Virus record (IMG/VR): IMGVR_UViG_3300045988_030968
Span: 1 to 44,150 of that record
DNA from: a virus
Taxonomy: Duplodnaviria > Heunggongvirae > Uroviricota > Caudoviricetes
Strand: one strand, 5' to 3'
Length of the DNA stretch: 44,150 bases
Under the pieces are notes generated by a model. It saw nothing but the letters and a program-made list of their open reading frames with translations. It was not told the origin of the DNA and did no database searches. Shown here piece after piece: positions 8,196-27,589 of the stretch. How positions within the stretch are numbered: the first letter of the stretch is position 1; each line of letters opens with the position of its first letter. Position numbers and translations under genes: made by a program.

Positions 8196-8212
8196 TTAAA
8201 TTGATTCAGATA

Positions 8213-8839: not shown

Positions 8840-8892
8840 CGTGATTTCTCGCTTTTCAGTTTACTCCGGGAAGCTGCCCGGCCAGTGATTTA

Positions 8893-8922
8893 ACTATAAT
8901 AGTTTGCTATTCAGGATGTCAA
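8893..8922 (-). promoter_or_regulatory. Sigma70-type promoter with palindromic operator, upstream of SSB-like gene
   Basis: Minus strand TTGACA, 17-18 bp spacer, TATAGT; spacer contains TGAATAG-N4-CTATTA. Confidence 0.5.
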
Positions 8923-8926
8923 CACT

Positions 8927-10174
8927 TTATTCCAAATCTTCTTCACTAACCTGATTCCACTCAGGACGTTTGTCATCTGCTGTTGTTACGCATGGCGCGC
9001 CTGGCTTACGGGTAATGAAGTCTTTCAGTTCTTCTTCCGGCACAACTTTAACAGCTTCGGTCGGCGTCATGAGCACTTCTTTAGTCAGCTTGTCGCCGTA
9101 GAGTTCTGCTACTTTCTCCGCATCTTTCCACGCACGATTTCCAGGACGACCCTCAACCAGCTTGTACCCAGGAACTTTCTTACCGGAATGCAATGCGGTA
9201 GCCATCGCTTTCTCAACCTTATCGATGTGCTGGCGCAACAACGGCAACTTCTCATACTCGGCTACAAGTTGCTCTGGTGTCAGTTCCAGTGCAAAATCGT
9301 CCTCCAGTTCTTCCGCCAGTACCGCGTTAACGGTTTTTGTACGCGCGGCGCACTGTTCGGAGAACCGACACCACTGGCAACCATCTACTGACGGCTTGAA
9401 GTCCGACGCTTTCAGGTTCTTCTTGCCACGGAAATACGCATCAAGGGCCATCAGTGCCCGTTTCTGCGCGAACTTAGCGAACAGTTCCAGACCTTCAACC
9501 GAGATGTCCCACTCCGATGCACTGCCAGCGTACGGCTGGAAGATGACAAGACGCACAACTGTGATGTTATAGCGTCTCTTGAGTCGGCGATAAACACCAA
9601 GAGCGTAAAGCATAAGCTGCTTGTTTTCTTTCGCTTCGACACGATGTCGTCCTGTTTTCAGGTCGCCGATGATAAGCATCGCTGAGTTACTTTCGCCCGT
9701 AAAGCCTTCTATAACAGCCACTAAGTCGGCGGTTCCGAACGTCTCAACACCTTCATAGCCAGGATGCAATACCTCAGTAAGATTGACGCGCATTTCCAGC
9801 TTAGCGTAAGTCGCTACGTCGATAATCGCTTTGCAGTAGTCGGTATATTTGCGCACCTGTTCAATCATGTCCGCCGTAATCAGTACCGCACCTTTCATCG
9901 GGCTTATTAGCGCCTTAATCTGACCTTTACCCTCATCCAGAACATACGCACCTACTTCACGTTCTAACGGCAGCGCAGTGCCTTTGATGTACTGGTTAAG
10001 GTGCACCTCCGCTATGGTGTGCATAGCTGTACCCAATACGGCGGCTTTACCCGACGTATTAGGGATATCTTTTTCACAAGCCAGTGATGCCGCACAGCTT
10101 AGCCACTTTTTAGCGCCTGACGGCGACAGTAAGGCGTGCACATCGTTATTGCCACCGCGTTCCTTTAAAATCAT
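8927..10174 (-). CDS. DUF2800 / Cas4-like PD-(D/E)xK exonuclease
   Basis: Motifs IGDLKTGR and QLMLYA; C-terminal Cys cluster CQWCRFSEQC; start set at ATG 10174 (ATGA overlap). Confidence 0.7.
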   Translation of the reverse strand: MILKERGGNNDVHALLSPSGAKKWLSCAASLACEKDIPNTSGKAAVLGTAMHTIAEVHLNQYIKGTALPLEREVGAYVLDEGKGQIKALISPMKGAVLITADMIEQVRKYTDYCKAIIDVATYAKLEMRVNLTEVLHPGYEGVETFGTADLVAVIEGFTGESNSAMLIIGDLKTGRHRVEAKENKQLMLYALGVYRRLKRRYNITVVRLVIFQPYAGSASEWDISVEGLELFAKFAQKRALMALDAYFRGKKNLKASDFKPSVDGCQWCRFSEQCAARTKTVNAVLAEELEDDFALELTPEQLVAEYEKLPLLRQHIDKVEKAMATALHSGKKVPGYKLVEGRPGNRAWKDAEKVAELYGDKLTKEVLMTPTEAVKVVPEEELKDFITRKPGAPCVTTADDKRPEWNQVSEEDLE

Positions 10175-10443
10175 ACCCTGTTCTCCCACTGGTCAATTAA
10201 ATGTCGTGTCTGGTGATGGCAATGCATAGCCCACCCATACATCGACTCGAAGACATAAAAGTCGGGTTTGGCGAAAGTTGTGCGCTTAATATGCGACACG
10301 TGACGGCCTATATCTTTAGGCCGCGGTACTTTTCCTAAGTACGCCATCTCTTCCATCTGATGCGCACCGGACGGCGCACGTAACAGCCATAGCGCCTCTG
10401 TGTTATCTCGCCTGTCTACAGCGCGGTAGAGTTGGTAAATCAT
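10171..10443 (-). CDS. Hypothetical protein (90 aa)
   Basis: ATG 10443 overlaps upstream stop (ATGA); track ORF 10171..10560 trimmed. Confidence 0.45.
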   Translation of the reverse strand: MIYQLYRAVDRRDNTEALWLLRAPSGAHQMEEMAYLGKVPRPKDIGRHVSHIKRTTFAKPDFYVFESMYGWAMHCHHQTRHLIDQWENRV

Positions 10444-10817
10444 TGCGCCTTCTCCTGCATTTTCAGAAAGACAATCATAGCGGCGTGAAGGGGGTTTTCG
10501 TGCGTACTTTCGGTGAAAGATGCAGAGTGATACGCGCGATATGTTAACGTACGCCGGCATTCAATTGATATATGATTGCGGGTGATAATTCGCCACGCAA
10601 TGTCTATGTTGTTGCACGGGTTAAATAAATTACCATTAGAAGGCCTAAAACCTTTAACAAAAGGCATTCTTGTTTGCCACACTGGACCCATGTCCGAATC
10701 ATCAGTATCACTATCAAAGTCATCGACGCCAGATGGAAAGAACAAATGCTCATTCAAATCTAATGCGACTGCCACCGCACAATTAATTTCAAAATCGCTC
10801 ATATCTTCATATTTCAT
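10440..10817 (-). CDS. Hypothetical protein (125 aa)
   Basis: ORF with ATG start downstream of acidic-protein gene terminator. Confidence 0.5.
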   Translation of the reverse strand: MKYEDMSDFEINCAVAVALDLNEHLFFPSGVDDFDSDTDDSDMGPVWQTRMPFVKGFRPSNGNLFNPCNNIDIAWRIITRNHISIECRRTLTYRAYHSASFTESTHENPLHAAMIVFLKMQEKAQ

Positions 10818-10837
10818 ATTTCCGACCCTCAGTTAAA

Positions 10838-10856
10838 GCGGCCCGAAGGCCGCGGG
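10838..10856 (-). terminator. Terminator-like hairpin after acidic-protein gene
   Basis: GCGGCC-CGAA-GGCCGC hairpin followed by TTTAACT on minus strand. Confidence 0.4.
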
Positions 10857-10860
10857 ATAG

Positions 10861-11328
10861 TTATTCTTCCTCGAAATATTTATTCTTGATTGCCGTCAGG
10901 CGTTCCAGGTACTCAGCCAGGTCTTCGTCTTTAATTGCGGCAATCTTCATCTTCTTACCGGTGAACTCTTCCAGCAGTTCATCGGAATCATCGCACGCGG
11001 CATCGCTCGGACCTTCGTTAATCGCATCATCAATAGCCTGAATCTGGTCACGAAGAGACTGATAATCGACTTCTTCTTCCTTCGCTTCTTCCGGTTCTGG
11101 CGTCGGTTCCTCTACTTTAGCTTTACGCGGCTTGCGTTTCGGCTTCTCTTCTTCTTCTGCCGGTTTGGTGTCAACGATGTCTTCACCTTCAACCGGGATT
11201 TCTTTTGTTGCAACAGTAGGTGTGATTGTTGCAGTTTCAGCAACGACAACTTGTTTCGCGCTGTTCGCAGCAATCAGTTCGTGCGCAACTACGAAACGTT
11301 CCAGTAATTTTAAGAATTGGTCTAACAT
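10861..11328 (-). CDS. Highly acidic protein with central basic patch, hypothetical
   Basis: 155 aa; long Glu/Asp runs around KPKRKPRKAK. Confidence 0.55.
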   Translation of the reverse strand: MLDQFLKLLERFVVAHELIAANSAKQVVVAETATITPTVATKEIPVEGEDIVDTKPAEEEEKPKRKPRKAKVEEPTPEPEEAKEEEVDYQSLRDQIQAIDDAINEGPSDAACDDSDELLEEFTGKKMKIAAIKDEDLAEYLERLTAIKNKYFEEE

Positions 11329-11352
11329 TATTTGTTCTCCTGTTTATTTAGG

Positions 11353-11580
11353 TTACTCGCCGTCGCCTTCTGTAAGGCTATCATCTATTAATTCAAATTT
11401 ACCGTTTTGGTGTTGAATTGCTTCTTGCCCACAATGGTCGCAAACCACCAGTTTATCGAATCCGTCAAACTCGTCTCCGACTACACAAGAAAGTACAAAC
11501 TTATGTTTTGTGCACACTTCCTGCGATTCACCGAAAATTGCTCGAAAACCTTTAGCTATGACTCCAGTGATTGTGTTCAT
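11353..11580 (-). CDS. Small Cys-containing protein (possible zinc binding), hypothetical
   Basis: 75 aa; CDHCGQ plus upstream Cys; first gene after promoter 11609-11638. Confidence 0.5.
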   Translation of the reverse strand: MNTITGVIAKGFRAIFGESQEVCTKHKFVLSCVVGDEFDGFDKLVVCDHCGQEAIQHQNGKFELIDDSLTEGDGE

Positions 11581-11608
11581 ATCTGCCTCTCTCGTTTGGT
11601 ATGTGCTA

Positions 11609-11638
11609 ACTATAATAGCGAACTATTCATGATGTCAA
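11609..11638 (-). promoter_or_regulatory. Sigma70-type promoter with palindromic operator, divergent from HTH gene
   Basis: Minus strand TTGACA, 17-18 bp spacer, TATAGT; spacer contains TGAATAG-N4-CTATTA. Confidence 0.5.
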
Positions 11639-11702
11639 TGGGCTTTTATTAAATAATTAATATGGTACTATTCACATATCAACTGACTAAGGAGTAATTG
11701 AC

Positions 11703-11918
11703 ATGCAACCATCTGAACTAGGCATCCGTGTAGAACAACGCCGTAAAGAACTTGGCATCTCACAGCGCCGTCTGGCTGTCCTTGCCGGCGTTTCTCAGGG
11801 CGCGATTAACCAGCTGGCACTTGGGGTAACTCAGGACGTCCGACCGGCGACGCTGTTTAAACTGGCGGAGGTGCTTGAAGTAGATGCCAAGTGGCTGGCG
11901 TTCGGTGAAGGGGCTTAA
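11703..11918 (+). CDS. Cro/XRE-family helix-turn-helix transcriptional regulator
   Basis: 71 aa; LGISQRRLAVLAGVSQGAINQLALG HTH; AAGGAG 8 nt before ATG; preceded by TGgTACTAT extended -10. Confidence 0.8.
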   Translation: MQPSELGIRVEQRRKELGISQRRLAVLAGVSQGAINQLALGVTQDVRPATLFKLAEVLEVDAKWLAFGEGA

Positions 11919-11933
11919 CGCCCCTTTCTTTTT
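11908..11933 (+). terminator. Rho-independent terminator after HTH gene
   Basis: GGGGC-TTAAC-GCCCC hairpin (stop codon in loop) followed by TTTCTTTTT. Confidence 0.6.
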
Positions 11934-11935
11934 AC

Positions 11936-14197
11936 CTATTCCAAATCCTCCTCTGTCACCGTTAGCATTTCATTCGGTTCATATATTGTCTTCGGAATCT
12001 TGTTATCGTTTATACCCCACGGCAACCGGTATTGCTTAGGGATCGGCCTGTTGTTGTTATCCAGCCCCGAGACTATAACCCCAGCCTCGTGCATCTCTTC
12101 CAGTTTCTTTCGAAGGTCGTTATTAGCGTTAATCGGCACACCATAACTATCTTCTTTCGCCGCTTTGACGATAGCGGACATAGAAAACCCTCGCTTGTCG
12201 TCGCCCTGCTCCTGCAATTTACCTAATGCGTAAATAACCGTAGCCTCTTTGGTGTCCAGTTTCTCGAACTGGCCTACCTTTTCTTTAACGGCTTCCTTCT
12301 GTTCGTCGGTCATACCTTCTACTTTCTTCACGAAGACAGAGAAGGCGTTAAAGTTAACAAAGACATCGATGTGCGGATTTCCCGCGTCAAAATCACGGAC
12401 ATCATCACTACTATACCCTTCCGGAAGCCCCATGAAGTTGTGAGTTGGTTCTTTCTTTTCCGGTGGCTCCGCTATCTGAATCTTCTGTATTACGAATCCT
12501 CTGGCTTTCTGCCGTTCTCCGTTTCTGTTCTTTATGTGGTACAGGTTTATCTCTAAGTTATTGTCGTTGTCCGGCTTATGGAGAAACATCCCGTTATCGA
12601 TGGAGTTGTGAAAATCGCTACCACCCTTCGGCATCATGCCGTTTTCAGATGGCACAGTTTCGTCGATGTTTTTAGTCGGGTGCACCATAGCGCCTACCGC
12701 AGCGTTAAGCGTCGACGCTATTTCGTTAAGCGCCTGTGCCGCTTCTTTCATCGACCTGTTGTCGTTCTCATCGAAGCCTGGTATGCAAGTTTGCAGGGTA
12801 TCAAACGTAACCTTTACAATTTTCTCTTCACCGGCAACACGGCGCATCATTCTCACCGCCTGGCGTCGCCATGCTTCATCAAGTAAATTACACCCATCGG
12901 CGACACAATCGATAATGTGCAAGCGGTCAAGGTTATCACCGAGGGCGATTTGCAAAGACTTTTTATGTCGTTCGAACGACTGTGCGCCTTCGCCGGCGAA
13001 AATGAACGCGTGTCCTTCTGCGACCTCTGCCCCGCCGAACGCATATCTTTTTTCAGCGGCTATAGCAGCATCAATAGCCATACTAAATGTTGACTTACCG
13101 GTATGTGACTTTGCGCAAATATAAAACGATTCATTAGTCTGCATAAGGCCATCTACGACGGAGTAAGCAGGTTCTTTTTCAACTTCCGGCTCGTCTTCAA
13201 GGTCTTCCAGCGTGCAAGTTACGGGCTCTTCGTTCTCTGTGCGGTGCAATTCCTCAATCTCTTCGTCAGGTAAATCAGGCAGAGCCGCGCGAATGCTGTT
13301 AATACTGATAGGTTGCTTGTCTACGTTAAGCTCGTCCGGAAGACCGCACATACGCAGGGCCAAATGTTGTCGGCGGTTAAGCTCGGTACAAGCACCGTTG
13401 TTTGTGTGCTGGCACACGAAGCGCACTTCTTTACCATCAAGCATGATGCTGGTGGAGCCTTTGCCTGTGTGCAGGTGTTCGTTAGGGCAAGGCACTTCAT
13501 ACCCGCGCCCAGAAGATAAAGCGTCAAGTCCGAGCTCGGCTTCGCAGAAATGCGCTATATCTGCGTTAAGCCCGTGCTCATCGGCGGCAAGCGTCTTAGC
13601 TTCGCGTTTACGCAACCCCATCTCTTCGGCTTTCTTGATGTATCGCTCGGCACGGATAACATGCCCTTCTGTAACCGTTATCTTCGACTCTTTATGTGGC
13701 AGGTAGATAAGGCGGTTGCCGTCTTCTGTGCAGTGGTCACGCAATGCCTCGTCTATTTCTAACTCAGCACAAATAGCACGTTGCACCATCCACGCGTCGT
13801 TAGAGTTAAACGGCGTGCGAGCTGGAACCAGAACGCGGAATGCGTAATCCCCGTTTTTACACGCGTGCTGGTGCGACGCCGTTGTGTGCAGGATATTGAA
13901 GAACGGCGCATTCTTGAATTTGCGTGTCAGGTCGCGATACTGTGTACGGTTGAGATGGTCGAAGTCGAACTTAACCACACTGTCTTCCAGAATCGCGTTT
14001 TTACGGCGACCGCCAACGGGGGCAATAGCCTTCTGCTTAATCTTGGCTGCGTCGTACTCTTCCTTAGTCCATGACGGGTCCACGGATAAACGCTTCGATG
14101 TATCGCAGACATACTCTACAAACTGCTCCAGCGGCATTTCACGCGCTACAGGGTTTTTATCGAATGTGTTACGCAGCGTTGCAAAAACAATATTCAT
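11936..14197 (-). CDS. Primase-helicase (AEP-type primase domain, zinc-binding region, P-loop NTPase)
   Basis: 753 aa; KFDFDHL acidic motif; Cys/His cluster CPNEHLH...CQHTNNGAC; Walker A AKSHTGKST. Confidence 0.65.
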   Translation of the reverse strand: MNIVFATLRNTFDKNPVAREMPLEQFVEYVCDTSKRLSVDPSWTKEEYDAAKIKQKAIAPVGGRRKNAILEDSVVKFDFDHLNRTQYRDLTRKFKNAPFFNILHTTASHQHACKNGDYAFRVLVPARTPFNSNDAWMVQRAICAELEIDEALRDHCTEDGNRLIYLPHKESKITVTEGHVIRAERYIKKAEEMGLRKREAKTLAADEHGLNADIAHFCEAELGLDALSSGRGYEVPCPNEHLHTGKGSTSIMLDGKEVRFVCQHTNNGACTELNRRQHLALRMCGLPDELNVDKQPISINSIRAALPDLPDEEIEELHRTENEEPVTCTLEDLEDEPEVEKEPAYSVVDGLMQTNESFYICAKSHTGKSTFSMAIDAAIAAEKRYAFGGAEVAEGHAFIFAGEGAQSFERHKKSLQIALGDNLDRLHIIDCVADGCNLLDEAWRRQAVRMMRRVAGEEKIVKVTFDTLQTCIPGFDENDNRSMKEAAQALNEIASTLNAAVGAMVHPTKNIDETVPSENGMMPKGGSDFHNSIDNGMFLHKPDNDNNLEINLYHIKNRNGERQKARGFVIQKIQIAEPPEKKEPTHNFMGLPEGYSSDDVRDFDAGNPHIDVFVNFNAFSVFVKKVEGMTDEQKEAVKEKVGQFEKLDTKEATVIYALGKLQEQGDDKRGFSMSAIVKAAKEDSYGVPINANNDLRKKLEEMHEAGVIVSGLDNNNRPIPKQYRLPWGINDNKIPKTIYEPNEMLTVTEEDLE

Positions 14198-14322
14198 TTC
14201 TTTTTCTCCGCACGTGCTAAGGCTTCCTGCATACGGCGCATTGCGCGGTTCATCTTTACCGGTGCGAAGAAATCAGCGCCGTGTTTCTGGCGGCGTAGCT
14301 GTGGAACTATTAACTTTGTCAT
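14194..14322 (-). CDS. Small basic protein (42 aa), hypothetical
   Basis: MTKLIVPQLRRQKHGADFFAPVKMNRAMRRMQEALARAEKKK; stop overlaps primase ATG (ATGA). Confidence 0.3.
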   Translation of the reverse strand: MTKLIVPQLRRQKHGADFFAPVKMNRAMRRMQEALARAEKKK

Positions 14323-14390
14323 TGTATAATCCTTGCGCTTACTTTGATGGTTTGTACTTTAGCCCCGACGTTCTGGCGTTGGGGTTTCTT

Positions 14391-14603
14391 TTACTTAACG
14401 CCAGCAATCCACGCACGCTCTGAAGTGTAGAAACGACACTTACTTAACGACTCGATTGGCATCTTAATAATCCGTGTTGTCCCTGAAAAATAATCAGGTT
14501 TGCATATTTCTGCGTAGAAACCGCTGTCAGTAATTTCTGATGCAAACTTAAACCGGTATTTAACTTTACCGTTTTCAAAGTAACAACCCATACGTCCAAT
14601 CAT
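14391..14603 (-). CDS. Hypothetical protein (70 aa)
   Basis: ORF with ATG start, overlaps upstream gene stop. Confidence 0.5.
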   Translation of the reverse strand: MIGRMGCYFENGKVKYRFKFASEITDSGFYAEICKPDYFSGTTRIIKMPIESLSKCRFYTSERAWIAGVK

Positions 14604-14782
14604 TTCACGTTCTCCTTAATCCACGCTTCAACTTTATTACGGTCAAATGTACCAGGTAAACGGCGACCCATAACCTTAATACAACAGTCAGGGAATTTAC
14701 CACTGCGTAACCAGTTATTAATTGTCTGACGTGTCACCCCGATACGCTCGGCTACTTCATTCTGCGTCATGTAATGTTGCAT
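14600..14782 (-). CDS. Small HTH DNA-binding protein (AlpA/excisionase-like fold)
   Basis: Start set at ATG 14782 with AGGAG upstream; MTQNEVAERIGVTRQTINNWLRSGKFP. Confidence 0.55.
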   Translation of the reverse strand: MQHYMTQNEVAERIGVTRQTINNWLRSGKFPDCCIKVMGRRLPGTFDRNKVEAWIKENVK

Positions 14783-14889
14783 TTTTATATCTCCTGTTTG
14801 TTTGGTGAAGCTGAGTATAGGATAGCTGGAATGTAAAAGCAACCAAAACACCACACAAAGTTACTAAGATACAAAAGATGCTACCGGTA

Positions 14890-14918
14890 TTGACTTTTAC
14901 TAAGAAATATGGTAAGCT
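14890..14918 (+). promoter_or_regulatory. Conserved promoter core, copy 1 (TTGACT-17-TAAGCT with TGg extended -10)
   Basis: Near-identical to 27337-27365. Confidence 0.45.
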
Positions 14919-15140
14919 CAGCCTGAGCTTGTGAAGTATGAACGAGCGACCGCGGCGCGCGGCAGGCGAAACGAGCACGTGTAGCGTGTGGAGTGAGGCT
15001 CGCTAGCGCGTTTGGGAGGCCCAAAGTCTATTGTAATTCCCACCTAAATATCTAAGTTACTGATTCGCCGTAAGTTATATCCGCAAGCTCACTCACTCAC
15101 TCTTGGTGCCTTCGGCACCACGTTCGTTTCGTTTCGCTCG
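14919..15140 (+). ncRNA. Candidate conserved leader / structured non-coding element, copy 1
   Basis: ORF-free; first ~60 nt conserved with 27366-27425; inverted repeat AGCTCAG-C-CTGAGCT, (CTCA)3, hairpin GGTGCC-TTCG-GCACC at 15105-15119. Confidence 0.25.
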
Positions 15141-15186
15141 CTATATCATTAAACGAAAGAATCACAACGGCAACGTAACTATTCTC

Positions 15187-15215
15187 TTGCACACCCCAAC
15201 ATAATAGGATACTAT
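15187..15215 (+). promoter_or_regulatory. Conserved promoter, copy D1 (TTGCAC-17-TACTAT with AATAG-N4-CTATT operator)
   Basis: 33-bp element repeated at 16599, 27238(-) and 36138(-); about 35 nt upstream of ATG 15250. Confidence 0.5.
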
Positions 15216-15249
15216 TCACTTATTGAAACAAGACAGAGGGGTGAGGGTT

Positions 15250-15438
15250 ATGTTTAAGAAGGGTCAGTTGGTCCGTAGTAAAAAGTCGGGATGTTTGTAC
15301 TCCGTATTTTCCACCAACAACAGAGGCAGTGCCGCCATTTGTAAACTTCGCAACGTATTTACTGGCGGCCATGCAACTGTAAGCGCGGAATATTTAAAAC
15401 TCATCGGCAACAATTTTAAATTCAAAGGGGCGAAGTGA
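15250..15438 (+). CDS. Hypothetical small protein
   Basis: ATG with GAGGGG upstream; first gene of rightward unit. Confidence 0.5.
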   Translation: MFKKGQLVRSKKSGCLYSVFSTNNRGSAAICKLRNVFTGGHATVSAEYLKLIGNNFKFKGAK

Positions 15439-15644
15439 TGGAAGAATTATTTGAAGAACTGAAACATCATAGACTGGAGAAAGTGCATTTCCAGGTAAAC
15501 AGATACGAAGTTATTTTATTCGACGGCCCAACTATTTCTTCCGGGGTATGGAAGGACCCGCTAAAAGTTTACGTGCACTCCGAACGGCATCGAATCATGA
15601 TGCTCGTGCCGACGACTCTGAGGGAGGTTGCCGTAAATGAATAA
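15438..15644 (+). CDS. Hypothetical small protein
   Basis: ATG overlaps upstream stop. Confidence 0.5.
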   Translation: MEELFEELKHHRLEKVHFQVNRYEVILFDGPTISSGVWKDPLKVYVHSERHRIMMLVPTTLREVAVNE

Positions 15645-15903
15645 CGCTGAACTGGAAAAAGTCTCTGACACCCTTCATAAGGTACGGGTCATGCGCCGGG
15701 GTGCCGGGCTGGAGCAGTTTTATAACATGTGGCGCACAGCGACGCGCGACCCTGAGTTTCTGCGGACAGGTTATTATTTCATTAAAGGCGTTATTCCGAT
15801 TCGCGCCCGCGGGGATTACGGTTGGGTGCGCGAGACACCTAATCTTATGTGGTGTTGGTACTGCGGTGAGTTTTGGGTGCGCGTTAAAGAGAAGATGGGG
15901 TGA
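15637..15903 (+). CDS. Hypothetical small protein
   Basis: Overlapping start/stop with neighbours. Confidence 0.5.
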   Translation: MNNAELEKVSDTLHKVRVMRRGAGLEQFYNMWRTATRDPEFLRTGYYFIKGVIPIRARGDYGWVRETPNLMWCWYCGEFWVRVKEKMG

Positions 15904-15906
15904 GTT

Positions 15907-16050
15907 ATGAGAGAAGCATTCGAACGGTGGGCCGTCGTCGAGGGTCTGCCCGTTAATAAGGGTTCAAAGAAAGAGTACCTGAACGTTAGGACGCGTCTCG
16001 CGTGGCGGGCGTGGAAAGCCGGTGTGCGGTATGCGATGAATACGAGGTGA
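15907..16050 (+). CDS. Hypothetical micro-protein (47 aa)
   Basis: MREAFERWAVVEGLP...; fills gap between flanking ORFs. Confidence 0.35.
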   Translation: MREAFERWAVVEGLPVNKGSKKEYLNVRTRLAWRAWKAGVRYAMNTR

Positions 16051-16053
16051 GAT

Positions 16054-16266
16054 ATGGGCGAGTGGATTAAGTGCAGCTCGAGGCTGCCGGAAGAATTCGC
16101 AGACATTCTTGTTTGCACAGAAGACAGTCAGGTGCATGAGGGTTACTACTTCGTGTATGCCGACAACACTCCTGTTTGGAAAATATATTGTTACAGCAAG
16201 CTGTATGCGAATGATGCGGGGATTGTAACTCACTGGATGCCCTTACCCGAGCCGCCGGAAGCGTGA
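16054..16266 (+). CDS. DUF551-like protein
   Basis: 70 aa; C-terminal VTHWMPLPEPP signature. Confidence 0.55.
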   Translation: MGEWIKCSSRLPEEFADILVCTEDSQVHEGYYFVYADNTPVWKIYCYSKLYANDAGIVTHWMPLPEPPEA

Positions 16267-16307
16267 TGTTATATTGTAACAATAGTTTGGGATTTTACTG
16301 AGTGACT

Positions 16308-16366
16308 TACGCTGCTACACAGCAGCGTACAACTTTAACTTAGTGTCGTCAAAAAGCGACACTTTC
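16308..16366 (+). terminator. Tandem hairpins, terminator-like
   Basis: TACGCTGCT-ACAC-AGCAGCGTA (9-bp stem) and AGTGTCG-N8-CGACACT followed by TTTC. Confidence 0.35.
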
Positions 16367-16409
16367 ACCAAACGCAACAATCGAAGCGGCTATTGCAGGA
16401 GATGCAACA

Positions 16410-16619
16410 ATGATTACTAGAGAACAGGCTGAACGACTAATCGCGTTAATCGACACGATGGTTGATGTAAAAACCGATTCAGCAACGGCAACAGAGGAAC
16501 TCGCTACTTGGTCGCTTGAAGAAAGAGAAGCAGAAGCGGAGCGCGAGTTACTGGCGTTCATCGACTCTATCACACACACACACACAAATAAAATTTACTT
16601 GCACGCTAAGATAGAATAG
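16410..16619 (+). CDS. Hypothetical small protein
   Basis: 69 aa; contains (CA)8 tract near 3' end. Confidence 0.5.
   Translation: MITREQAERLIALIDTMVDVKTDSATATEELATWSLEEREAEAERELLAFIDSITHTHTNKIYLHAKIE
16571..16586. repeat. (CA)8 dinucleotide microsatellite
   Basis: CACACACACACACACA encoding THTHT at the C-terminus of ORF 16410..16619. Confidence 0.9.
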
Positions 16620-16627
16620 GCTACTAT
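16599..16627 (+). promoter_or_regulatory. Conserved promoter, copy D2 (TTGCAC-17-TACTAT)
   Basis: TTGCACgctaagATAGAATAGGcTACTATTCA matches D1 pattern; about 32 nt upstream of ATG 16659. Confidence 0.45.
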
Positions 16628-16658
16628 TCATTTACACAAACGAGAGGAGAGACAGAAG

Positions 16659-16787
16659 ATGAAAGACTATAGCGAAGTAACTTTGGGTGAGTTGCAGGAC
16701 GAGTACGAAGATATGCTCTACCCGTTCATCTGCGACGGAGATTACAACGGCGTCTATAACGGAGTGAGCGAAGAATATGAACAGTAA
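16659..16787 (+). CDS. Hypothetical micro-protein (42 aa)
   Basis: GAGGAGAGA RBS then ATG; overlaps next start. Confidence 0.35.
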   Translation: MKDYSEVTLGELQDEYEDMLYPFICDGDYNGVYNGVSEEYEQ

Positions 16788-17433
16788 AAACGAAGTATTC
16801 GAGTACCTGATTGGCCAGCTACGGCAACACGTAAATAAGAAAGATGTGACATCTTTCAATGTGTCTGTACAGATATCCGACCTTGATGAGGTCAAGCAGG
16901 TAATCCACAATCTACAGCAGCATATCGCTGGTAAGGACGACGAAATACGTATGCTGAAAGACAGTTTACAGAAGCAGCTACCCGTCGTAGATGTAATGGG
17001 CGAAATCAAACGGTGGAGTATTGACCGTAGTATTGCTGACCGCGGCAACTATACCGACGAGGAAAACGCCATAATCGATGCTTGCATCGGCCTGGAGCAC
17101 AACCCCTACAAGCAACAGTGCGAAGACCTGGCGCATGAGGTGCAGTCACTTAAGAATCAGTTACGTGATGCATCGGCGCAGATTAAGGAGTTGCATATGG
17201 CGCTGGTTCGGGCTACTGGCGATGCAGAGGCTTACAAACTTGTGTGCAAACAGGAGCAATCCGGTTGCCGTAAGGAAGACACTCAGGAATGCTGTCACGA
17301 GTTTGTGCACAGCAAACATAAAAGCGGTTTAGTTTGCTTTAAGTGTGGGGCGCGCAAAGAGTGTGAGCACGAATGGCAATTTTACGGAGTCGGGTTTCCA
17401 TGTATGTGCCTTAAATGCGGGCTAAAGAAATGA
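16777..17433 (+). CDS. Coiled-coil protein with C-terminal Cys/His zinc-ribbon-like cluster
   Basis: 218 aa; heptad-rich middle; C-terminus CCHEF...CFKCG...CMCLKCG. Confidence 0.55.
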   Translation: MNSKNEVFEYLIGQLRQHVNKKDVTSFNVSVQISDLDEVKQVIHNLQQHIAGKDDEIRMLKDSLQKQLPVVDVMGEIKRWSIDRSIADRGNYTDEENAIIDACIGLEHNPYKQQCEDLAHEVQSLKNQLRDASAQIKELHMALVRATGDAEAYKLVCKQEQSGCRKEDTQECCHEFVHSKHKSGLVCFKCGARKECEHEWQFYGVGFPCMCLKCGLKK

Positions 17434-17633
17434 CCAGCATCTTATTTATCTGGGTATTGTCCGCAGGCCAGATGCAACTAGCGGCATCAGAAACGTTTTA
17501 CTCGATGGAGGCGTGCCAGTCAGCGGCACGCGCCGCAGAGAACGCGCACTTCCTGTTTCAGGGTGACAAGCCTAATGATTCAGAGGTACGCGCTATCTGC
17601 GCACCTAAGCGACTTGGTAAACAGGAGAAATAA
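17430..17633 (+). CDS. Small protein with N-terminal signal-peptide-like segment
   Basis: MTSILFIWVLSAGQMQLAASE; ATG overlaps upstream stop (ATGA). Confidence 0.45.
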   Translation: MTSILFIWVLSAGQMQLAASETFYSMEACQSAARAAENAHFLFQGDKPNDSEVRAICAPKRLGKQEK

Positions 17634-17926
17634 TGACTCTTGCAACTGACATCCTGAAACGAAGCGGCCTTGCGCCGCTGTCGCCGAGAGCTAAAACACA
17701 GATATACAAGCGTCGAGGTAACGCGCTGTACCCTGAGATTCAGGCCAGACGTAAGGCGGTACGCGCCTGTGGATTCCAGAACGGGAAGGCCGTGAATCTC
17801 GGTGAGTTTAAAACACAGGAACGCGCCGCTATCGCTAATCGGTTATTTAATTACTGGAAATCGCTGGGGTATGAAGATATTCCGACTAAACCACAGAGAC
17901 GACAATACATCTGGAGGCACAAATGA
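17633..17926 (+). CDS. Hypothetical basic protein
   Basis: 97 aa; ATG overlaps upstream stop. Confidence 0.5.
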   Translation: MTLATDILKRSGLAPLSPRAKTQIYKRRGNALYPEIQARRKAVRACGFQNGKAVNLGEFKTQERAAIANRLFNYWKSLGYEDIPTKPQRRQYIWRHK

Positions 17927-18363
17927 CTACTATCGCGTTCGACGGAAAGACAATGGCCTGTGACACGCGTGTTGTGTGCGGAAGTAACTGTTACAACACA
18001 GACACGAAGATATACGAGAATGATTTTGTTGTTATCGGGGCGGCTGGTGATGCCGGAGTAGGGGATATTCTCGTTGGTGATCGAGGAATTTTAGTACCTA
18101 AGCACTATGACTTCGATTTCGAAGCTCTGGTATTCGTGAAAGACACAGAAAAGGTGTATAAAGTCGCGTTCTACAAATCGTGGGATTGCGCACTTAGTTC
18201 AGTTATTCCAATCGCTGATAGCTTTGCTGCCGTAGGCTCCGGTTCTCCTTATGCATTAGCGGCTATGGAGTGCGAATATTCGGCGCATGGCGGAGTGGCC
18301 GTTGCATCGAAGTTTGACACTAACACCGGCGGCAAGATTATTACCAAACAACTATTAGGATAA
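17923..18363 (+). CDS. HslV / proteasome-beta-like Ntn-hydrolase (T1 peptidase fold)
   Basis: 146 aa; N-terminal MTTIAFDG (Thr nucleophile after Met), KIYENDFVVIGAAGDAG, and AVGSGSPYALAA matching HslV GSGGPYA region; GGAGG RBS. Confidence 0.6.
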   Translation: MTTIAFDGKTMACDTRVVCGSNCYNTDTKIYENDFVVIGAAGDAGVGDILVGDRGILVPKHYDFDFEALVFVKDTEKVYKVAFYKSWDCALSSVIPIADSFAAVGSGSPYALAAMECEYSAHGGVAVASKFDTNTGGKIITKQLLG

Positions 18364-18422
18364 TTCCTACCCGTGGTATCCTCCAGTTACTGCATACTTA
18401 ATACGCACCTGGAGGATTCATC

Positions 18423-18731
18423 TTGGATAAATTTACTGAAACAGTGACAGGCTGGCTTCTCGCTGCCGCACTCGCCGGAGGGGTAATCGGACTACGGCAG
18501 CATAAGTCCGTTATTTCTGGCCCTATCGACGGCTTCTGCTTTATCGCAACTGGCTTCACTTGCGCCGTATTTGGGGCACCTCTCGCGGCTCAATGGTTCG
18601 GTATCACTGGCGACCGTGAAATCGCTGGTCTGGGCTTTATCATCGCTATTCTCTGGATGCCTATCTATTCCCGTCTCTCCGGTATCGTCGCCGGAGAATA
18701 CATCGCACGTCGAGGAGGCCCAGATGAATGA
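18423..18731 (+). CDS. Membrane protein, putative holin
   Basis: 102 aa, three hydrophobic segments; TTG start 6 nt after GGAGGA; immediately upstream of endolysin. Confidence 0.5.
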   Translation: MDKFTETVTGWLLAAALAGGVIGLRQHKSVISGPIDGFCFIATGFTCAVFGAPLAAQWFGITGDREIAGLGFIIAILWMPIYSRLSGIVAGEYIARRGGPDE

Positions 18732-18996
18732 GTTATTCTGGTTCGGCGGTATGCTGGCAATCGGAGGCACATCGCTGTTTAACGTGTATCACCCCCGCGT
18801 TGACGATGGGCTATTTGGCCGGGTGCTCTATATCCTGACCGCTATTGTCTGCGCTGCCGGATGTATCCACCTGTTACAGGGCAGCATGTCACCTACGTTG
18901 CCTGAGACATTAATCACATTAGTTGCGCTGCGTCAGATTCGTCAGGCGTGGCTATCGTACGGAGGACATAAGCGTGTCTCGAAACATTTCAGATAA
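18724..18996 (+). CDS. Second small membrane protein (holin/antiholin candidate)
   Basis: 90 aa from internal ATG of track ORF 18571..18996; two hydrophobic segments; ATG overlaps upstream stop. Confidence 0.45.
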   Translation: MNELFWFGGMLAIGGTSLFNVYHPRVDDGLFGRVLYILTAIVCAAGCIHLLQGSMSPTLPETLITLVALRQIRQAWLSYGGHKRVSKHFR

Positions 18997-19480
18997 TGGG
19001 CTGCATTTCACCGCTGCGTTCGAGGGTTTCCGTGGAACTGCATACAAAGCAACAAAGAACGAAAAACACTGGACTATAGGCTGGGGCCATACCGGGCCTG
19101 ATGTGTACGAAGGGCAGAAGATTACCGAAGGTCAGGGGTTGCTGTTGCTGAACCGCGATATGCAGTGGGCTGTGAAAGCAGTCGATGAAGTCGCGCACCC
19201 ATCGCTGACACAGGCTCAGTTTGACGCCGTTGTTGACCTGGTGTTCAACGCAGGGACTGGCGTGATTGCGGCTACGACAGGGACGGGTAAGGCACTACGG
19301 CGGGGAGACATCCCTACATTACGGCACAAGATGAGTCAGTTCATCAACCAGCGCAACCCGAAAACCGGTAAACTTGAGCCTGTGCTCGGCCTTCGTCGCC
19401 GTACCGCCGGGCGTCTGGCACTGTTCGACGGCAAACCGTGGCGGGAGGCTGAGGCTATCGGGCGCGCGGTGAAAGGTTGA
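18974..19480 (+). CDS. Endolysin, GH24-type lysozyme (muramidase)
   Basis: GLHFTAAFEGFRGTAYKATKNEKHWTIGWGHT catalytic region; GTG 18974 preceded by GGAGGA; track ORF begins 18923. Confidence 0.75.
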   Translation: MSRNISDNGLHFTAAFEGFRGTAYKATKNEKHWTIGWGHTGPDVYEGQKITEGQGLLLLNRDMQWAVKAVDEVAHPSLTQAQFDAVVDLVFNAGTGVIAATTGTGKALRRGDIPTLRHKMSQFINQRNPKTGKLEPVLGLRRRTAGRLALFDGKPWREAEAIGRAVKG

Positions 19481-19545
19481 CACCTAAGACTAATCCGACG
19501 ATACTTAAATCACCTCCTGTTCCATCCCTATGCGCTCCAGTTTTA

Positions 19546-19579
19546 TCCCGGCCCTGACCCAGCCGGGATTTTTTTTTAT
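19546..19579 (+). terminator. Strong rho-independent terminator after lysis genes
   Basis: TCCCGGC-N9-GCCGGGA hairpin followed by a 9-T run. Confidence 0.7.
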
Positions 19580-19599
19580 CTATCCTATGTAATGACTAG

Positions 19600-19628
19600 T
19601 TGACTATTACTTACGACCCTACTATATT
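19600..19628 (+). promoter_or_regulatory. Sigma70-type promoter
   Basis: TTGACT, 17-bp spacer, TATATT; about 34 nt upstream of ATG 19662. Confidence 0.5.
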
Positions 19629-19661
19629 TACTCCATCGACAACGAGAACGGAGTAGAGAAG

Positions 19662-19895
19662 ATGGTTACAGATAAAAGCACCCTTAAACTAAAACTACGA
19701 GACGCGGTTAATTGCTCTTTGTATTCATGTACAGATGCCGAGCAGCGTGAACTTGTAAAACTAACTATAGTAGAGTTCTTCTCTGCAATAGGCATGGAGG
19801 ACAGCGATTACGTCGAAGTGCTTTCTAACTGTGGCGGATTAGATGCAGATACGGACGACGCGGTAGACGAGCTGATTAAGGAATTTGACCAATGA
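19662..19895 (+). CDS. Hypothetical small acidic protein
   Basis: 77 aa; first ORF after promoter 19600. Confidence 0.5.
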   Translation: MVTDKSTLKLKLRDAVNCSLYSCTDAEQRELVKLTIVEFFSAIGMEDSDYVEVLSNCGGLDADTDDAVDELIKEFDQ

Positions 19896-20041
19896 AAATC
19901 ACTGATATCGAAGCATTCAAAGACGCACAACTGATGGCACGCATCGCCGTTGGCAACCTGGGTGGAAGCATTCCTGCGGACTCGTTCTGGGCCGCCGCGA
20001 TGCAGGCACTGAAAGCAGCTTATGCAGGAGAGAAGAAATGA
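19892..20041 (+). CDS. Hypothetical micro-protein (49 aa)
   Basis: ATGA overlaps at both ends; ends ...AYAGEKK. Confidence 0.4.
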   Translation: MKITDIEAFKDAQLMARIAVGNLGGSIPADSFWAAAMQALKAAYAGEKK

Positions 20042-20232
20042 AAAATATAATCCCGGAAGTTGGTGAAGGTTGTTTCGTTGTTTCTTATTTAGACGGAGAT
20101 GAGTACGTTGATTGCGGCCAGTTTCAGCAATCTGAGGATGCAGGGGCTTACGCCGCGAAGCTAGTAGGTACTACGCCACTAGAAGATGTTCGTATCGTAT
20201 TCAATATAGAACTCGCAGGAGAGAAGAAATGA
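20038..20232 (+). CDS. Hypothetical small protein
   Basis: 64 aa; ends ...ELAGEKK using same 18-bp junction sequence as the preceding gene. Confidence 0.5.
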   Translation: MKNIIPEVGEGCFVVSYLDGDEYVDCGQFQQSEDAGAYAAKLVGTTPLEDVRIVFNIELAGEKK

Positions 20233-20387
20233 GCGAACAAGGTCCAGCAAACCAGCCATTACGAGTAGGCCGTAAAGTCAGTCACACCCCGTTCCCGACA
20301 CGCGAGGAACTGATGAAACGCAACAGTTTCCCGGGGCCGGACAAGAACAAGTATCTCAATCGCATGTGGGGAGAGCGTAAAGAATGA
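20229..20387 (+). CDS. Hypothetical micro-protein (52 aa)
   Basis: ATGA overlaps at both ends. Confidence 0.4.
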   Translation: MSEQGPANQPLRVGRKVSHTPFPTREELMKRNSFPGPDKNKYLNRMWGERKE

Positions 20388-20554
20388 AAAAGTTAATTGC
20401 AGATGTTGAGCTTGGTGATGTTATCCGTATTGATGACGCCTACGGCGGCTACGACGTAGTGGTGAAGTGCATCAAGTGGGATTCTATGCTGCCGTTAGTC
20501 ACGATTAACCGTGAAGTCATGTTCGCTAAAACTGATTGGGTAGAGGTTCGATAA
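20384..20554 (+). CDS. Hypothetical micro-protein (56 aa)
   Basis: ATGA overlap upstream; TAATG overlap downstream. Confidence 0.4.
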   Translation: MKKLIADVELGDVIRIDDAYGGYDVVVKCIKWDSMLPLVTINREVMFAKTDWVEVR

Positions 20555-20727
20555 TGACTAACAACGAATACGAGAAACTTAGCGTAGAAGCGGCGACCGG
20601 TGAATCTGAAATAGCGTGGATTGACGCCAACATCGAGCACTACCTACGGCAAGTAGACATCCTTATGGAACGCCGCCGCGAACTTATCAATCGCTTCAAC
20701 CTTAACAAAGGTGATACCAATGCCTAA
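20554..20727 (+). CDS. Hypothetical small protein
   Basis: Internal ATG of track ORF 20536..20727. Confidence 0.45.
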   Translation: MTNNEYEKLSVEAATGESEIAWIDANIEHYLRQVDILMERRRELINRFNLNKGDTNA

Positions 20728-20959
20728 AATCACAATCGCATCACTCGAGCGTCGTATTCTGGTGCTTGAGTCGGAGAGACAGACGTTAGGCGGGCAACTG
20801 TCAATTAACGGTGAGTTTCAACTGGAGGCGTTTAAGTTGCTTCTTGATAAGTTGAAGGCGGACGAGACGCCTTGCGAGCACGATTACTGCCTACATGTGG
20901 TCGGTGGATTACATCGAGTCACGTGCATTAAATGTGGTAAAGCGTATGGAGTCGCCTAA
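20720..20959 (+). CDS. Hypothetical small protein with C-terminal Cys/His cluster
   Basis: CEHDYCLH...CIKCG. Confidence 0.5.
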   Translation: MPKITIASLERRILVLESERQTLGGQLSINGEFQLEAFKLLLDKLKADETPCEHDYCLHVVGGLHRVTCIKCGKAYGVA

Positions 20960-21128
20960 ACCAGTAGTTATCGATGGCGTCCTGTGGAAACCCTACTCGG
21001 TTAACCACATCGACGCCGACGGGAAGAAGTTCAGCTTCTACATTTTTGCAATTAGCCGTGAGCACGCCGCTTGTGTGGTTGACGATATACGTGAAACGGC
21101 GTGGCTTGGCGATGAGATAGTGGGGTGA
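20946..21128 (+). CDS. Hypothetical small protein
   Basis: Internal ATG of track ORF 20895..21128. Confidence 0.4.
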   Translation: MESPKPVVIDGVLWKPYSVNHIDADGKKFSFYIFAISREHAACVVDDIRETAWLGDEIVG

Positions 21129-21130
21129 GT

Positions 21131-21361
21131 ATGTTTCACGAACTAAAGATATTACCTGAGCATTTTGAGCCTGTTCTGGCTGGCATTAAACTGGCGGAAC
21201 TGCGGTTAAACGACCGCGACTTCAAGGAAGATGACACTCTGTGCCTGCGAGAATACGAAAACGGTGAATACACAGGCCGTATCGTTTACCGCCGCGTTAT
21301 TCATGTTGCTGACGTAGGGGCTTACCTACCAGGGTACGTGCTATTAAGTATGGAGGATTGA
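21131..21361 (+). CDS. DUF3850 / ASCH-like small protein
   Basis: MFHELKILPEHFEPVLAGIK...LRLNDRDF...LREYENGEYTGR pattern. Confidence 0.6.
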   Translation: MFHELKILPEHFEPVLAGIKLAELRLNDRDFKEDDTLCLREYENGEYTGRIVYRRVIHVADVGAYLPGYVLLSMED

Positions 21362-21363
21362 TT

Positions 21364-21534
21364 ATGTTCAGTGACATCAACGCGGCAATCGAAGAAGCAA
21401 TCTGGCGTCGCTACAATGGCGAGCAGCAACGGCACTTCTGCCTGGTGCAACGCGGTAACATGATTGCCGTAGTGCAGGACCGCAATAACAAATATCCGAA
21501 TGCGATGTGGACAACGAGGAATTTCTTAGGATGA
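21364..21534 (+). CDS. Hypothetical micro-protein (56 aa)
   Basis: ATG 3 nt after upstream stop; ATGA overlap downstream. Confidence 0.4.
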   Translation: MFSDINAAIEEAIWRRYNGEQQRHFCLVQRGNMIAVVQDRNNKYPNAMWTTRNFLG

Positions 21535-21767
21535 TTACCAGCATTCCGAACCTGATTAAAGAATACGGCACGATGGCCGAGACTTGCCGACAAACCGGTA
21601 TCAACGAAATGACGATTGCGAAGTACAGCAAAGACGTTAACTGTGAGCGCCACGTAATTTATAACAACCGTCTGATGACGCACGTTAAGACCAGCCCGAT
21701 GTTATTTACGCGCCGTGGTATCACTAAAACTGAGCAACGCATTGCGCGAGAGTGGAGCGTGGAATGA
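21531..21767 (+). CDS. Hypothetical small protein (possible HTH regulator)
   Basis: TMAETCRQTGINEMTIAKYSKD helix-turn-helix-like segment; last but one gene before late operon. Confidence 0.4.
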   Translation: MITSIPNLIKEYGTMAETCRQTGINEMTIAKYSKDVNCERHVIYNNRLMTHVKTSPMLFTRRGITKTEQRIAREWSVE

Positions 21768-27365: not shown

Positions 27366-27573
27366 CCACCTGAGCTTGTGAAGTATGAACAAGCGACCGC
27401 GGCGCGGGCAGGTAACGGAGCGGGACGTAAGTCCTGAGTGTAGTTACGCTGACGCGTTCGGAAGGGCCATAGGCTATTGCTTGTGTAAAAAGTAACTGGT
27501 TTACTGAGATTACGCCGTTTCTGTGTTTAAATGATAAGGACTAACGCCCCGCTTTATGGCGGGGCTTTACTTA
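27366..27573 (+). ncRNA. Candidate conserved leader, copy 2, ending in terminator-like hairpin
   Basis: ORF-free; 5' part conserved with copy 1; GCCCCGC-TTTATG-GCGGGGC plus TTTACTTAT at 27545-27573, just before the spanin RBS. Confidence 0.25.
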
Positions 27574-27589
27574 TCGAGAAAGGAGAAAC

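Follow-up and report, generated by a model that had tools for sequence, protein, structure and literature searches.

The stretch of DNA analysed here (the window, 44,150 bp) comprises the complete genome of a siphophage, circularly permuted; a repeat search found bases 1-55 again at 44096-44150. It was assigned to the genus Kagunavirus, subfamily Guernseyvirinae, and is an E. coli phage. Phages such as Golestan, Snoke and RP180 are 90-95% identical to it over the region around the element described below, and the capsid protein is 89-97% identical in more than 460 Guernseyvirinae records. The gene order is that of the annotated phage Jersey. Replication genes are transcribed leftward (2438-14854). 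A first rightward block (15250-26901) carries small genes, holin, endolysin, terminase, portal and head genes, and a second (27590-34496) carries spanins, scaffold, major capsid and tail genes. After a short leftward insert (34524-36126), the remaining tail genes run rightward from 36278 across the junction to 2275. No tRNA or tmRNA was found in the window with ARAGORN.

Two ORF-free gaps of about 370-395 bp are located at 14855-15249 and 27214-27589. The initial annotation described such gaps as the longest in the genome, and this holds, since the one larger apparent gap is a tail-fibre ORF over the window junction (41790..44360 in the circularised genome). Each gap contains one copy of a promoter followed by a conserved leader. 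Alignment of copy 1 (14890-14980) with copy 2 (27337-27425) gave 78 identical positions out of 91 (85.7%), in agreement with the first estimate of roughly 85% over about 90 bp, and the repeat search of the window returned 14890-14959 and 27337-27406 as a 70-nt repeat of 87% identity. Identity is 88.6% in the promoter (-35 to -1), is highest from +1 to +35 (97.1%), and then falls to 68.9% in the remainder of the structured domain and 50% beyond it, which corresponds to the weaker downstream similarity seen at the outset. The 22-nt core CCTGAGCTTGTGAAGTATGAAC occurs exactly twice in the window and in none of 100 shuffles. The motifs GTGAAGTATGAAC and CCGCGGCGCG were confirmed in the sequence, and the features originally ascribed to copy 1 were all located: (CTCA)3 at 15088-15099, (CGTTT)2, and a GGTGCC-TTCG-GCACC hairpin at 15104-15120. 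A single regulatory module is present in two paralogous copies, one in each region.

Promoters and terminators around the module

The promoter of copy 1, named P_A, consists of a -35 hexamer TTGACT (14890-14895), a 17-nt spacer ending in TGg and a -10 hexamer TAAGCT (14913-14918), with a predicted start at about G14925 on the plus strand. Copy 2 has the same elements, as first described, with TTGACT at 27337-27342, a 17-nt spacer with TGg, TAAGCT at 27360-27365 and a predicted start at about G27372 on the plus strand. In 34 distinct upstream regions of related phages the hexamers, the TG and the 17-nt spacing are kept while the spacer bases vary; the Jerseyvirus promoter reads TAGACT/TTGACT and TGnTACGCT. 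This conservation pattern, read from sequence with predicted start sites, is that expected of a working extended -10 sigma-70 promoter. A simple promoter scan overlooks P_A because TAAGCT has only 3 of the 6 consensus bases. An antisense promoter, TTCACA-18-CATATT, was proposed by promoter scan; its -10 lies within the variable spacer of P_A and it is probably a chance match.

A DNA palindrome, AAGCTCAG-C-CTGAGCTT, is located at 14914..14930 and spans the -10 hexamer and +1 to +6. The initial annotation had reported AGCTCAG-C-CTGAGCT in each copy and had placed it in the transcribed segment. Copy 1 does carry this form, whereas copy 2 has only AGCTC-CACCT-GAGCT, and in relatives only the AAGCTC/GAGCTT arms are found, around a variable centre of 4-6 nt. 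The assignment to the transcript was not upheld: the palindrome straddles the -10 hexamer and +1, and as one half falls within the hexamer, ahead of the predicted start, it is a feature of the DNA rather than an RNA hairpin. It is possibly an operator, or possibly a by-product of the -10 hexamer lying next to an arm of the first RNA hairpin (P1, see below).

Between copy 1 and the first gene (ATG 15250) lies a second plus-strand promoter, TTGCAC-N17-TACTAT (15187-15215), which together with an AATAG-N4-CTATT palindrome occupies 15187..15222. This type, class B, is repeated in inverted orientation at 27235-27270 and 36135-36170, and other class B promoters are found inside the first rightward block and ahead of leftward genes. 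The window contains 11 matches to the AATAG-N4-CTATT palindrome, at 9 sites, compared with 0.19 expected; the palindrome sits over the -10 region of the phage's other promoters. The motif was given as a 'phage polymerase promoter' consensus in the fBC-Eco01 paper (PMC9825357); despite this label, no polymerase is encoded by these phages. The motif is missing from P_A, which carries a palindrome of its own, AAGCTC-N5-GAGCTT, over -10/+1 and thus forms a separate regulatory class. As initially proposed, both copies lie upstream of long plus-strand blocks (with internal terminators inside them), but in copy 1 the second promoter intervenes before the first gene.

Terminator-like intergenic hairpins were found after the portal gene (25338-25353) and after the capsid gene (29937-29958; Jersey counterpart 9859-9876), and a strong one (-19.2 kcal/mol, followed by T5) precedes the tape-measure gene. 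Further such hairpins stand at the ends of the blocks headed by P_A. A bidirectional terminator and 1.6 kb of genes on the opposite strand stand before the tail block at 36278, ahead of which no sigma-70-like promoter was found. Another conserved, apparently structured segment precedes this distal tail block.

Fold and covariation of the leader RNA

Relatives of the element were gathered from viral contigs by an exact core pattern and a gapped pattern, and a covariance model (CM R1) was built; 66 matches, 37 of them distinct, were aligned. From a MAFFT alignment RNAalifold predicted a P1 hairpin from +3 to +23, followed after a 2-nt linker by one long irregular hairpin (the rod), so that the two form adjacent stem-loops. 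The outer part of the rod consists of P2a (CCG/CGG), a bulged C, P2b (GGCGCG/CGCGUU) and a GG/A internal loop. The inner part consists of P3 (CAG+GUAAC/GUUAC+CUG), a second internal loop (5' GGA-GC, 3' GA-GU-GUA) and P4. Both the GG/A loop and the GGA/GUA-type loop are conserved.

In copy 1 the structured domain is 109 nt long (14925..15033, plus strand), as assigned from the CM R1 match (90.2 bits, E 8e-20), the RNAalifold consensus and the pair counts. It contains P1 (14927-14932/14942-14947, loop GAAGUAUGA), the rod (14950-15015; P2a CCG/UGG, P2b GGCGCG/CGCGUU, P3, internal loop, P4), which takes the common architecture when folded alone, and a purine-rich tail GAGGCCC...CUAUUG (15016-15033). 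The 108-nt domain of copy 2 (27372..27479, plus strand) matches CM R1 at 133 bits and comprises P1 (27374-27379/27389-27394), a 23-bp rod with the P4 loop GUAA (27397-27461) and a tail AAGGGCC...CUAUUG (27462-27479). The minimum free energy structure of the 204-nt copy 2 leader has the same fold, with z = -2.73.

In the MAFFT-only, structure-blind alignment (A2), 97.0% of cells were paired compared with 90.5% in shuffles, and the covariation score was 0.191 compared with 0.081 (0/500 shuffles reaching it). When the partners were slid by 1-3 columns as controls, the score was at most 0.089. In the 37 distinct CM-aligned sequences, 97.2% of cells were paired, 12 of the 25 pairs change on both sides, and the score was 0.340 compared with 0.111 in shuffles (0/500), in an alignment that leans towards structure because it was fitted to the model. 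Three Watson-Crick forms are seen at one pair of P2b (C:G, U:A and A:U) and at one of P3 (U:A, A:U and G:C), and P4 occurs as GGAC/GUCC, GUGC/GCAC, GGGC/GCCC, CACG/CGUG and GUGCC/GGCAC. All 24 distinct rods, each folded alone, took the same minimum free energy architecture at -26 to -37 kcal/mol. Several columns of the CM alignment are predominantly G:U; these would be C-A mismatches on the opposite strand, so the fold belongs to the plus-strand transcript and is therefore an RNA fold. As judged from sequence covariation, these comparisons demonstrate selection on the RNA fold. The initial annotation had taken conservation past the start site as a sign of RNA and had suggested an alignment with related phages to look for conservation and compensatory changes; the covariation and the strand-specific G:U pairs bear out a structured RNA, which is kept in related phages.

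The GC-rich hairpin of that annotation needs revision. CCGCGGCGCG is mainly the 5' strand of the long-range helix of the rod, about 23 bp, and a local hairpin CCGCG-N-CGCGG can also form, in every variant, in competition with the long-range P2 helix. One variant keeps the local hairpin by a double change (CCGUG-U-CACGG), and variant L014 favours it. Covariation in the sequences, with three Watson-Crick types at one pair, favours the long-range P2, and the local hairpin may be a co-transcriptional intermediate.

The terminal loops are variable. The P1 loop is GAAGUAUGA, GAGAUAUC or UUC, and that of P4 is GUAA, GUUA, GUCA, CUCG, UGUAG, AUUA or UCACAA. Pairing of the P1 loop (AGUAUG) with the tail (CAUACU) as a pseudoknot was considered and rejected, as any of the four bases can stand at the key position of the tail and such a loop is missing from Jerseyvirus. 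The resemblance of CUCUAUUG to boxA was likewise set aside, since its CUCU is not conserved. After the rod comes the purine-rich part of the tail (CGGAAGGG, GGGAGG or GGGGA), then 5-8 variable bases and (C/A)UAUU(G/C). A role of the tail as Shine-Dalgarno sequence plus start codon, for a leader peptide or a start-stop, was rejected, as one variant no longer has the UUG, two lineages have no AUU, and the peptides show no conservation. The tail is described here as purine-rich and SD-like.

A second conserved block, GAUUCGCCGUA-like, follows the tail, and a GC hairpin comes next. The distal leader of copy 1 (15034..15186, plus strand) contains the block GAUUCGCCGUAAG, the (CTCA)3 repeat and the GC hairpin at 15104-15120 (-10.5 kcal/mol), which is followed by CGUUCGUUUCGUUUCG and not by a canonical U tract. 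The segment between tail and hairpin is C-rich and G-poor (25 C to 12 G), a composition like that of Rho sites. At the copy 1 site the hairpin varies from phage to phage, with GGUGCC... or GGGGUGGGC...CCCACCC in the same position, and a U tract is lacking. In copy 2 the distal leader (27480..27589, plus strand) contains the block GAGAUUACGCCGU, a hairpin and the RBS GAAAGGAG of the spanin gene (ATG 27590), whose product is Rz-like (phrog_2536). The copy 2 hairpin, GCCCCGC-UUUAUG-GCGGGGC (27546-27565, -16.5 kcal/mol), is followed by UUUACUUAU and is terminator-like. It is kept by compensatory changes (GCCCUGC/GCAGGGC, GCCCGAC/GUCGGGC and, in Jersey, GCCCGGC/GCCGGGC); the Jersey stem has no U tract. 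The distance from start to hairpin is 197 nt in copy 1 and 194 nt in copy 2.

Distribution among Guernseyvirinae

The Kagunavirus-type element was found in 181 phage records, at two places in many Kagunavirus genomes. In Jerseyvirus a single copy is detectable, with 90-100% identity across 269 records. In phage Jersey the element lies at 7307-7401 (34.5 bits, E 3e-6), upstream of the spanin gene and within an annotated 'gp08 hypothetical protein'. In both genera an element is always found upstream of the spanin-scaffold-capsid-tail operon. The rod of one element at the copy 2 site (L012) is that of an element at the copy 1 site of another phage (L022), which points to exchange between the two sites and to functional equivalence of the copies.

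Other Guernseyvirinae lineages have leaders of similar architecture at the same site. Cornellvirus SE1 gave no significant match to the covariance model; its leader at this site is very stable (z = -5.2) and has a P1-like hairpin, a rod CAGGGAC/GUCCCUG capped by GGCC-GUAA-GGCC, and a tail AUAGUCUAUU. Further variants, with a common CGGAAGGG tail, occur in Pantoea AH01, GRNsp27, phiEap-2 and Hafnia TS33, where matches to the model are weak (12-13 bits) yet in the right place and order. Retrieval of the locus by its spanin gene brought no further lineages. A host origin is not supported, as a search of 5,426 complete E. coli genomes did not find the element.

The Rfam search proposed in the initial annotation gave no match in the window at gathering thresholds (Rfam 15), and in E-value mode only chance-level ones (E 0.5-6, at most 17 bits compared with thresholds of 35-59). 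Our own covariance model recovers the element in relatives. Published work includes genome reports with predicted promoters and terminators and one gene-level Kagunavirus transcriptome; we found no description of the leader in the literature on Kagunavirus and Jerseyvirus promoters, transcriptomes and host factors. With no published description, we treat the element as a new RNA family, a phage cis-regulatory leader in its general kind. We consider it very probable that the module as a whole is a sigma-70 extended -10 promoter, P_A, of a class distinct from the phage's others, joined to a leader of about 200 nt in which a fold of about 95 nt under selection (P1 and a rod of about 23 bp) is followed by the tail and a GC hairpin, and that it is specific to Guernseyvirinae and heads the late structural operon.

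Possible functions of the leader

The function we favour, tentatively, is that of a cis-acting nascent-RNA element which makes the elongation complex resistant to terminators or to Rho, alone or with a partner. The element would work on the polymerase or transcript that produces it. The structured nascent RNA, by itself like HK022 put or with a phage or host protein like lambda nut with N, would modify the elongation complex; the modified complex would resist the leader hairpin or terminator, Rho on the long untranslated leader, and the intrinsic terminators in and between the late blocks; and the distal capsid, tail and lysis genes would be reached only by transcripts started at P_A. We favour this reading because it accounts for the fusion to the promoter, the duplication ahead of two multi-terminator blocks, the interchangeability of the rods, and a downstream hairpin that is kept while its sequence changes. 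The element begins at +3 of a conserved promoter (as counted from the predicted start) whose class differs from the other promoters of the phage. A leader hairpin kept by compensatory changes, and terminator-like in copy 2, lies between the RNA and the first gene, and the distal leader of copy 1 is Rho-site-like. Terminator-like hairpins lie inside the blocks, and the distal tail block has no recognisable sigma-70 promoter.

Several observations count against it. Most leader hairpins (copy 1, Jersey) have no U tract and so may not terminate at all, and copy 1 has a gene-proximal promoter after it, which leaves no obvious need for read-through from P_A at that site. Phages without an antitermination system commonly have internal terminators after their capsid genes. 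The 40 small proteins scanned against PHROGs, 10 of them also against Pfam, include two HTH regulators and one ASCH/DUF3850 protein and no antitermination protein of the N or Q family, and no homology to put was seen. The 5' domain differs considerably between genera, which fits a generic structural role as well as a specific one.

The likeness to HK022 put is one of logic. The put RNA is about 70 nt long, and its two adjacent stem-loops form a V that binds the beta' zinc-binding domain and gives factor-independent antitermination. The internal loops of these stem-loops are functionally important, terminators lie downstream, and no phage protein is required; putL, with its two stem-loops, follows PL immediately and begins at +2/+3 (PMC9378689). 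The Kagunavirus element likewise is a duplicated cis element just past two promoters with terminators downstream. It differs in being about 95 nt long, in combining a short hairpin with a long rod where put has two comparable stems with a triplex, and in belonging to a virulent phage and not a lambdoid prophage. CM R1, run unfiltered over the whole HK022 genome, found nothing at PL or PR, and Rfam holds no put family. An inverted-repeat search of HK022 did not locate putL or putR. In the only match of CM R1 in HK022, a weak one of 17 bits at PR', nothing but P1 is aligned, with a DNA palindrome across the -10 hexamer, and we did not take this as a sign of homology. That the element is a put-like, protein-free RNA family of virulent siphophages, evolutionarily independent, which binds the RNA polymerase of E. 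coli or Salmonella and confers resistance to terminators and Rho, is unlikely on the whole.

Like lambda nutL/nutR, which act with N, the element is an RNA site that is duplicated and lies close to the 5' end in each of two operons, where it would mark the polymerase for read-through of terminators. It has no boxA consensus, the sole boxA-like stretch CUCUAUUG varying at key positions, and its P4 terminal loop, unlike boxB, is not conserved. No arginine-rich N-like protein for a nut-type system was found among the 40 small proteins scanned.

A role in RNA processing or stability is the main alternative to the read-through function, and we regard it as possible but rather doubtful. The rod would be a substrate of the RNase III type and/or the ...CUAUUG of the tail an RNase E site, P1 would guard against 5'-end-dependent decay, and the element would set the half-life or stoichiometry of the late mRNA. 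RNase III substrates belong to a length class of irregular helices of about 20 bp or more with an internal loop, and the 23-bp rod, made of coaxial helices with internal loops, falls into this class. P1 starts at +1 to +3 in every lineage; the tail is single-stranded, A/U-rich and adjoins a stem; and in Jersey AU|AUU fits the RNase E preference RN|WUU. The stable 5'-end hairpins also stay while the architecture of the 5' domain drifts between genera. The rod resembles the T7 RNase III sites (R0.3, R1.1 and others): these recur within the T7 genome as irregular hairpins that span about two helical turns and contain an asymmetric internal loop, and one of them lies in the 5' leader after the early promoters. 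Unlike these, it is fused to a promoter, has P1 ahead of it and occurs in only one or two copies per genome; the covariance model found no copy in other intergenic regions of the phage. A nuclease site, moreover, needs neither conserved internal-loop sequences nor fusion to a special promoter class.

Each module could instead be a stand-alone small RNA gene, yielding an RNA of about 195-200 nt that ends at the GC hairpin (14925-~15121 and 27372-~27570), or a processed 5' fragment of about 105 nt, which would act in trans on a host protein or on mRNAs. This would suit the fact that each module has its own promoter and a 3' hairpin at a similar distance (197 and 194 nt), that a separate gene promoter follows copy 1, and that the hairpin of copy 2 is terminator-like, at -16.5 kcal/mol before UUUACUUAU. 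The absence of U tracts after the hairpins of copy 1 and Jersey argues against it, as does the fact that in all genera the element sits immediately ahead of the late operon and in one orientation, which an RNA acting in trans does not need. Moreover, no seed-like invariant single-stranded segment is common to all lineages, the P1 loop being variable. We consider this explanation improbable.

Control on the DNA in the manner of lambda Q appears more improbable still. A phage protein would load onto the polymerase at P_A through the -10/+1 palindrome or a promoter-proximal sigma-dependent pause and would take it past the leader terminator; the terminated RNA of about 195 nt would be an analogue of lambda 6S, and its fold secondary. 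The layout of promoter, leader of about 195 nt, hairpin and late genes does mirror that of the lambdoid PR', 6S and tR', which share a constitutive-looking promoter with -35 TTGACT and an untranslated leader of about 195 nt ending in a hairpin before lysis and morphogenesis genes, and HK022 PR' and P_A both have a palindrome over the -10 region. The Jerseyvirus -10 hexamer, TACGCT, recurs exactly 3 nt downstream, at about +1. In Kagunavirus, however, the corresponding repeat is TGAGCT, without the A that is critical at position 2 of a -10-like element, and the P1 stem also explains the repeat. The lambdoid Q system relies on recognition at the DNA and of a paused complex, and we know of no conserved leader fold there, whereas the leader fold here covaries, which means selection on the RNA fold itself; no Q family match was found among the proteins scanned. 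The module is put-like in logic and PR'-6S-tR'-like in layout, and is a member of neither group.

A sensor (riboswitch, thermosensor or attenuator), whose 5' domain would refold in response to a ligand or condition and so decide whether the downstream hairpin forms, is the least credible of these explanations and very improbable: such a hairpin is present and the local hairpin can compete with P2 in all variants, with its one double change, but 60-90 nt separate the structured domain from the downstream hairpin, whose sequence is wholly different between the copies and so allows no shared alternative pairing, a rod with small internal loops is not aptamer-like, and there is no Rfam match.

Guernseyvirinae (Kagunavirus, Jerseyvirus, Cornellvirus) include hundreds of sequenced E. 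coli and Salmonella phages, many of them under development for therapy or biocontrol. Their transcription programme is essentially unstudied, and the region of the element is unannotated or called a hypothetical ORF. A covariation-supported leader RNA with a special promoter class, placed ahead of the late operon, offers a concrete and testable handle on the timing and driving of late expression in a phage without its own polymerase. If the element is a processing or stability element, it would still explain the longest non-coding regions of these genomes and correct their annotation. If it modifies the polymerase, it would join the single phage RNA family so far known to do this without a dedicated protein, and would be useful for studies of elongation control and as a portable read-through part. 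Should the protein-free action on RNA polymerase prove true, the element would define which transcripts reach the late genes.

Distal leader of copy 1 and a candidate protein partner

The distal part of the copy 1 leader contains a (CTCA)n tract, set in a C-rich, G-poor stretch, which behaves as a microsatellite. The number of units differs among phages, with three in the window (15088-15099) and six in the related phage sequence L038. In the copy 1 leader of the window (15066-15073 and 15167-15174) and in copy 1 leaders of the L018 type (L018 being another of the phage sequences compared), GUUGCCGU and ACGGCAAC are complementary to each other and lie one on each side of the GC hairpin; GUUGCCGU reads UCGCCGU in the phage of the window. 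The same two sequences make a hairpin in Cornellvirus-type leaders, with the spanin gene downstream. Pairing of GUUGCCGU with ACGGCAAC may give the leader an additional conserved helix.

The scan of small genes gave a single predicted RNA-binding protein, 78 amino acids long and encoded on the plus strand at 21125-21361, which matches DUF3850/ASCH (PF12961, E 3e-18) and phrog_986 ('RNA-binding protein'). This makes it a candidate for a protein that partners the leader RNA.

Conserved segment and hairpins near the tail genes

A segment of about 50 nt (36189-36236, plus strand) precedes the gene for the tail-assembly chaperone at 36278. It is kept across Kagunavirus, phage Jersey and Cornellvirus, and sequence comparison revealed apparent compensatory changes in it. 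The outer helix occurs as GCGCC..GGCGC, GCGUC..GGCGC or GCGGC..GCCGC, and the inner helix as GCGGG-UGGUU-CCCGY or GCAGA..ACUGC. The segment possibly represents another structured RNA element, in addition to the leader. No sigma-70-like promoter was seen in front of the tail-gene block at 36278.

A strong terminator-like hairpin, GGGGTGGGC-CGGAAT-GCCCGCCCC followed by TTTTT (36830-36853, plus strand; -19.2 kcal/mol), lies directly before the tape-measure gene, within the tail chaperone's -1 frame 'T' extension; phage Jersey has no counterpart at the corresponding position. Bidirectional terminator hairpins of the form AAGGCCCC-N4-GGGGCCTT, near-identical to one another, are located at 2272-2303, 8172-8206, 26897-26928 and 34493-34524, where converging transcription blocks end.

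Palindrome of the other promoters

The palindrome GAATAG-N4-CTATTA gave 11 matches at nine sites in the window, compared with 0.19 expected: 5059-5074, 8897-8912, 11613-11628, 11658-11673, 15202-15217, 16614-16629, 19594-19609, 27240-27255 and 36140-36155. In the other promoters of the phage it overlaps the -10 region, and it is probably an operator for a phage regulator. Published genome papers label this motif a 'phage RNA polymerase promoter', yet the phages carry no polymerase gene.

Record ends and annotation

Positions 1-55 and 44096-44150 are identical, and the record is therefore an assembly that closes into a circle of 44,095 bp; a tail-fibre ORF of 856 codons spans the junction. In phage Jersey, the ORF annotated as 'gp08 hypothetical protein' (7265-7456) covers the same stretch as the promoter, structured RNA and leader, and is therefore probably not a gene. 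Hypothetical proteins are also annotated across the element in several Kagunavirus records.
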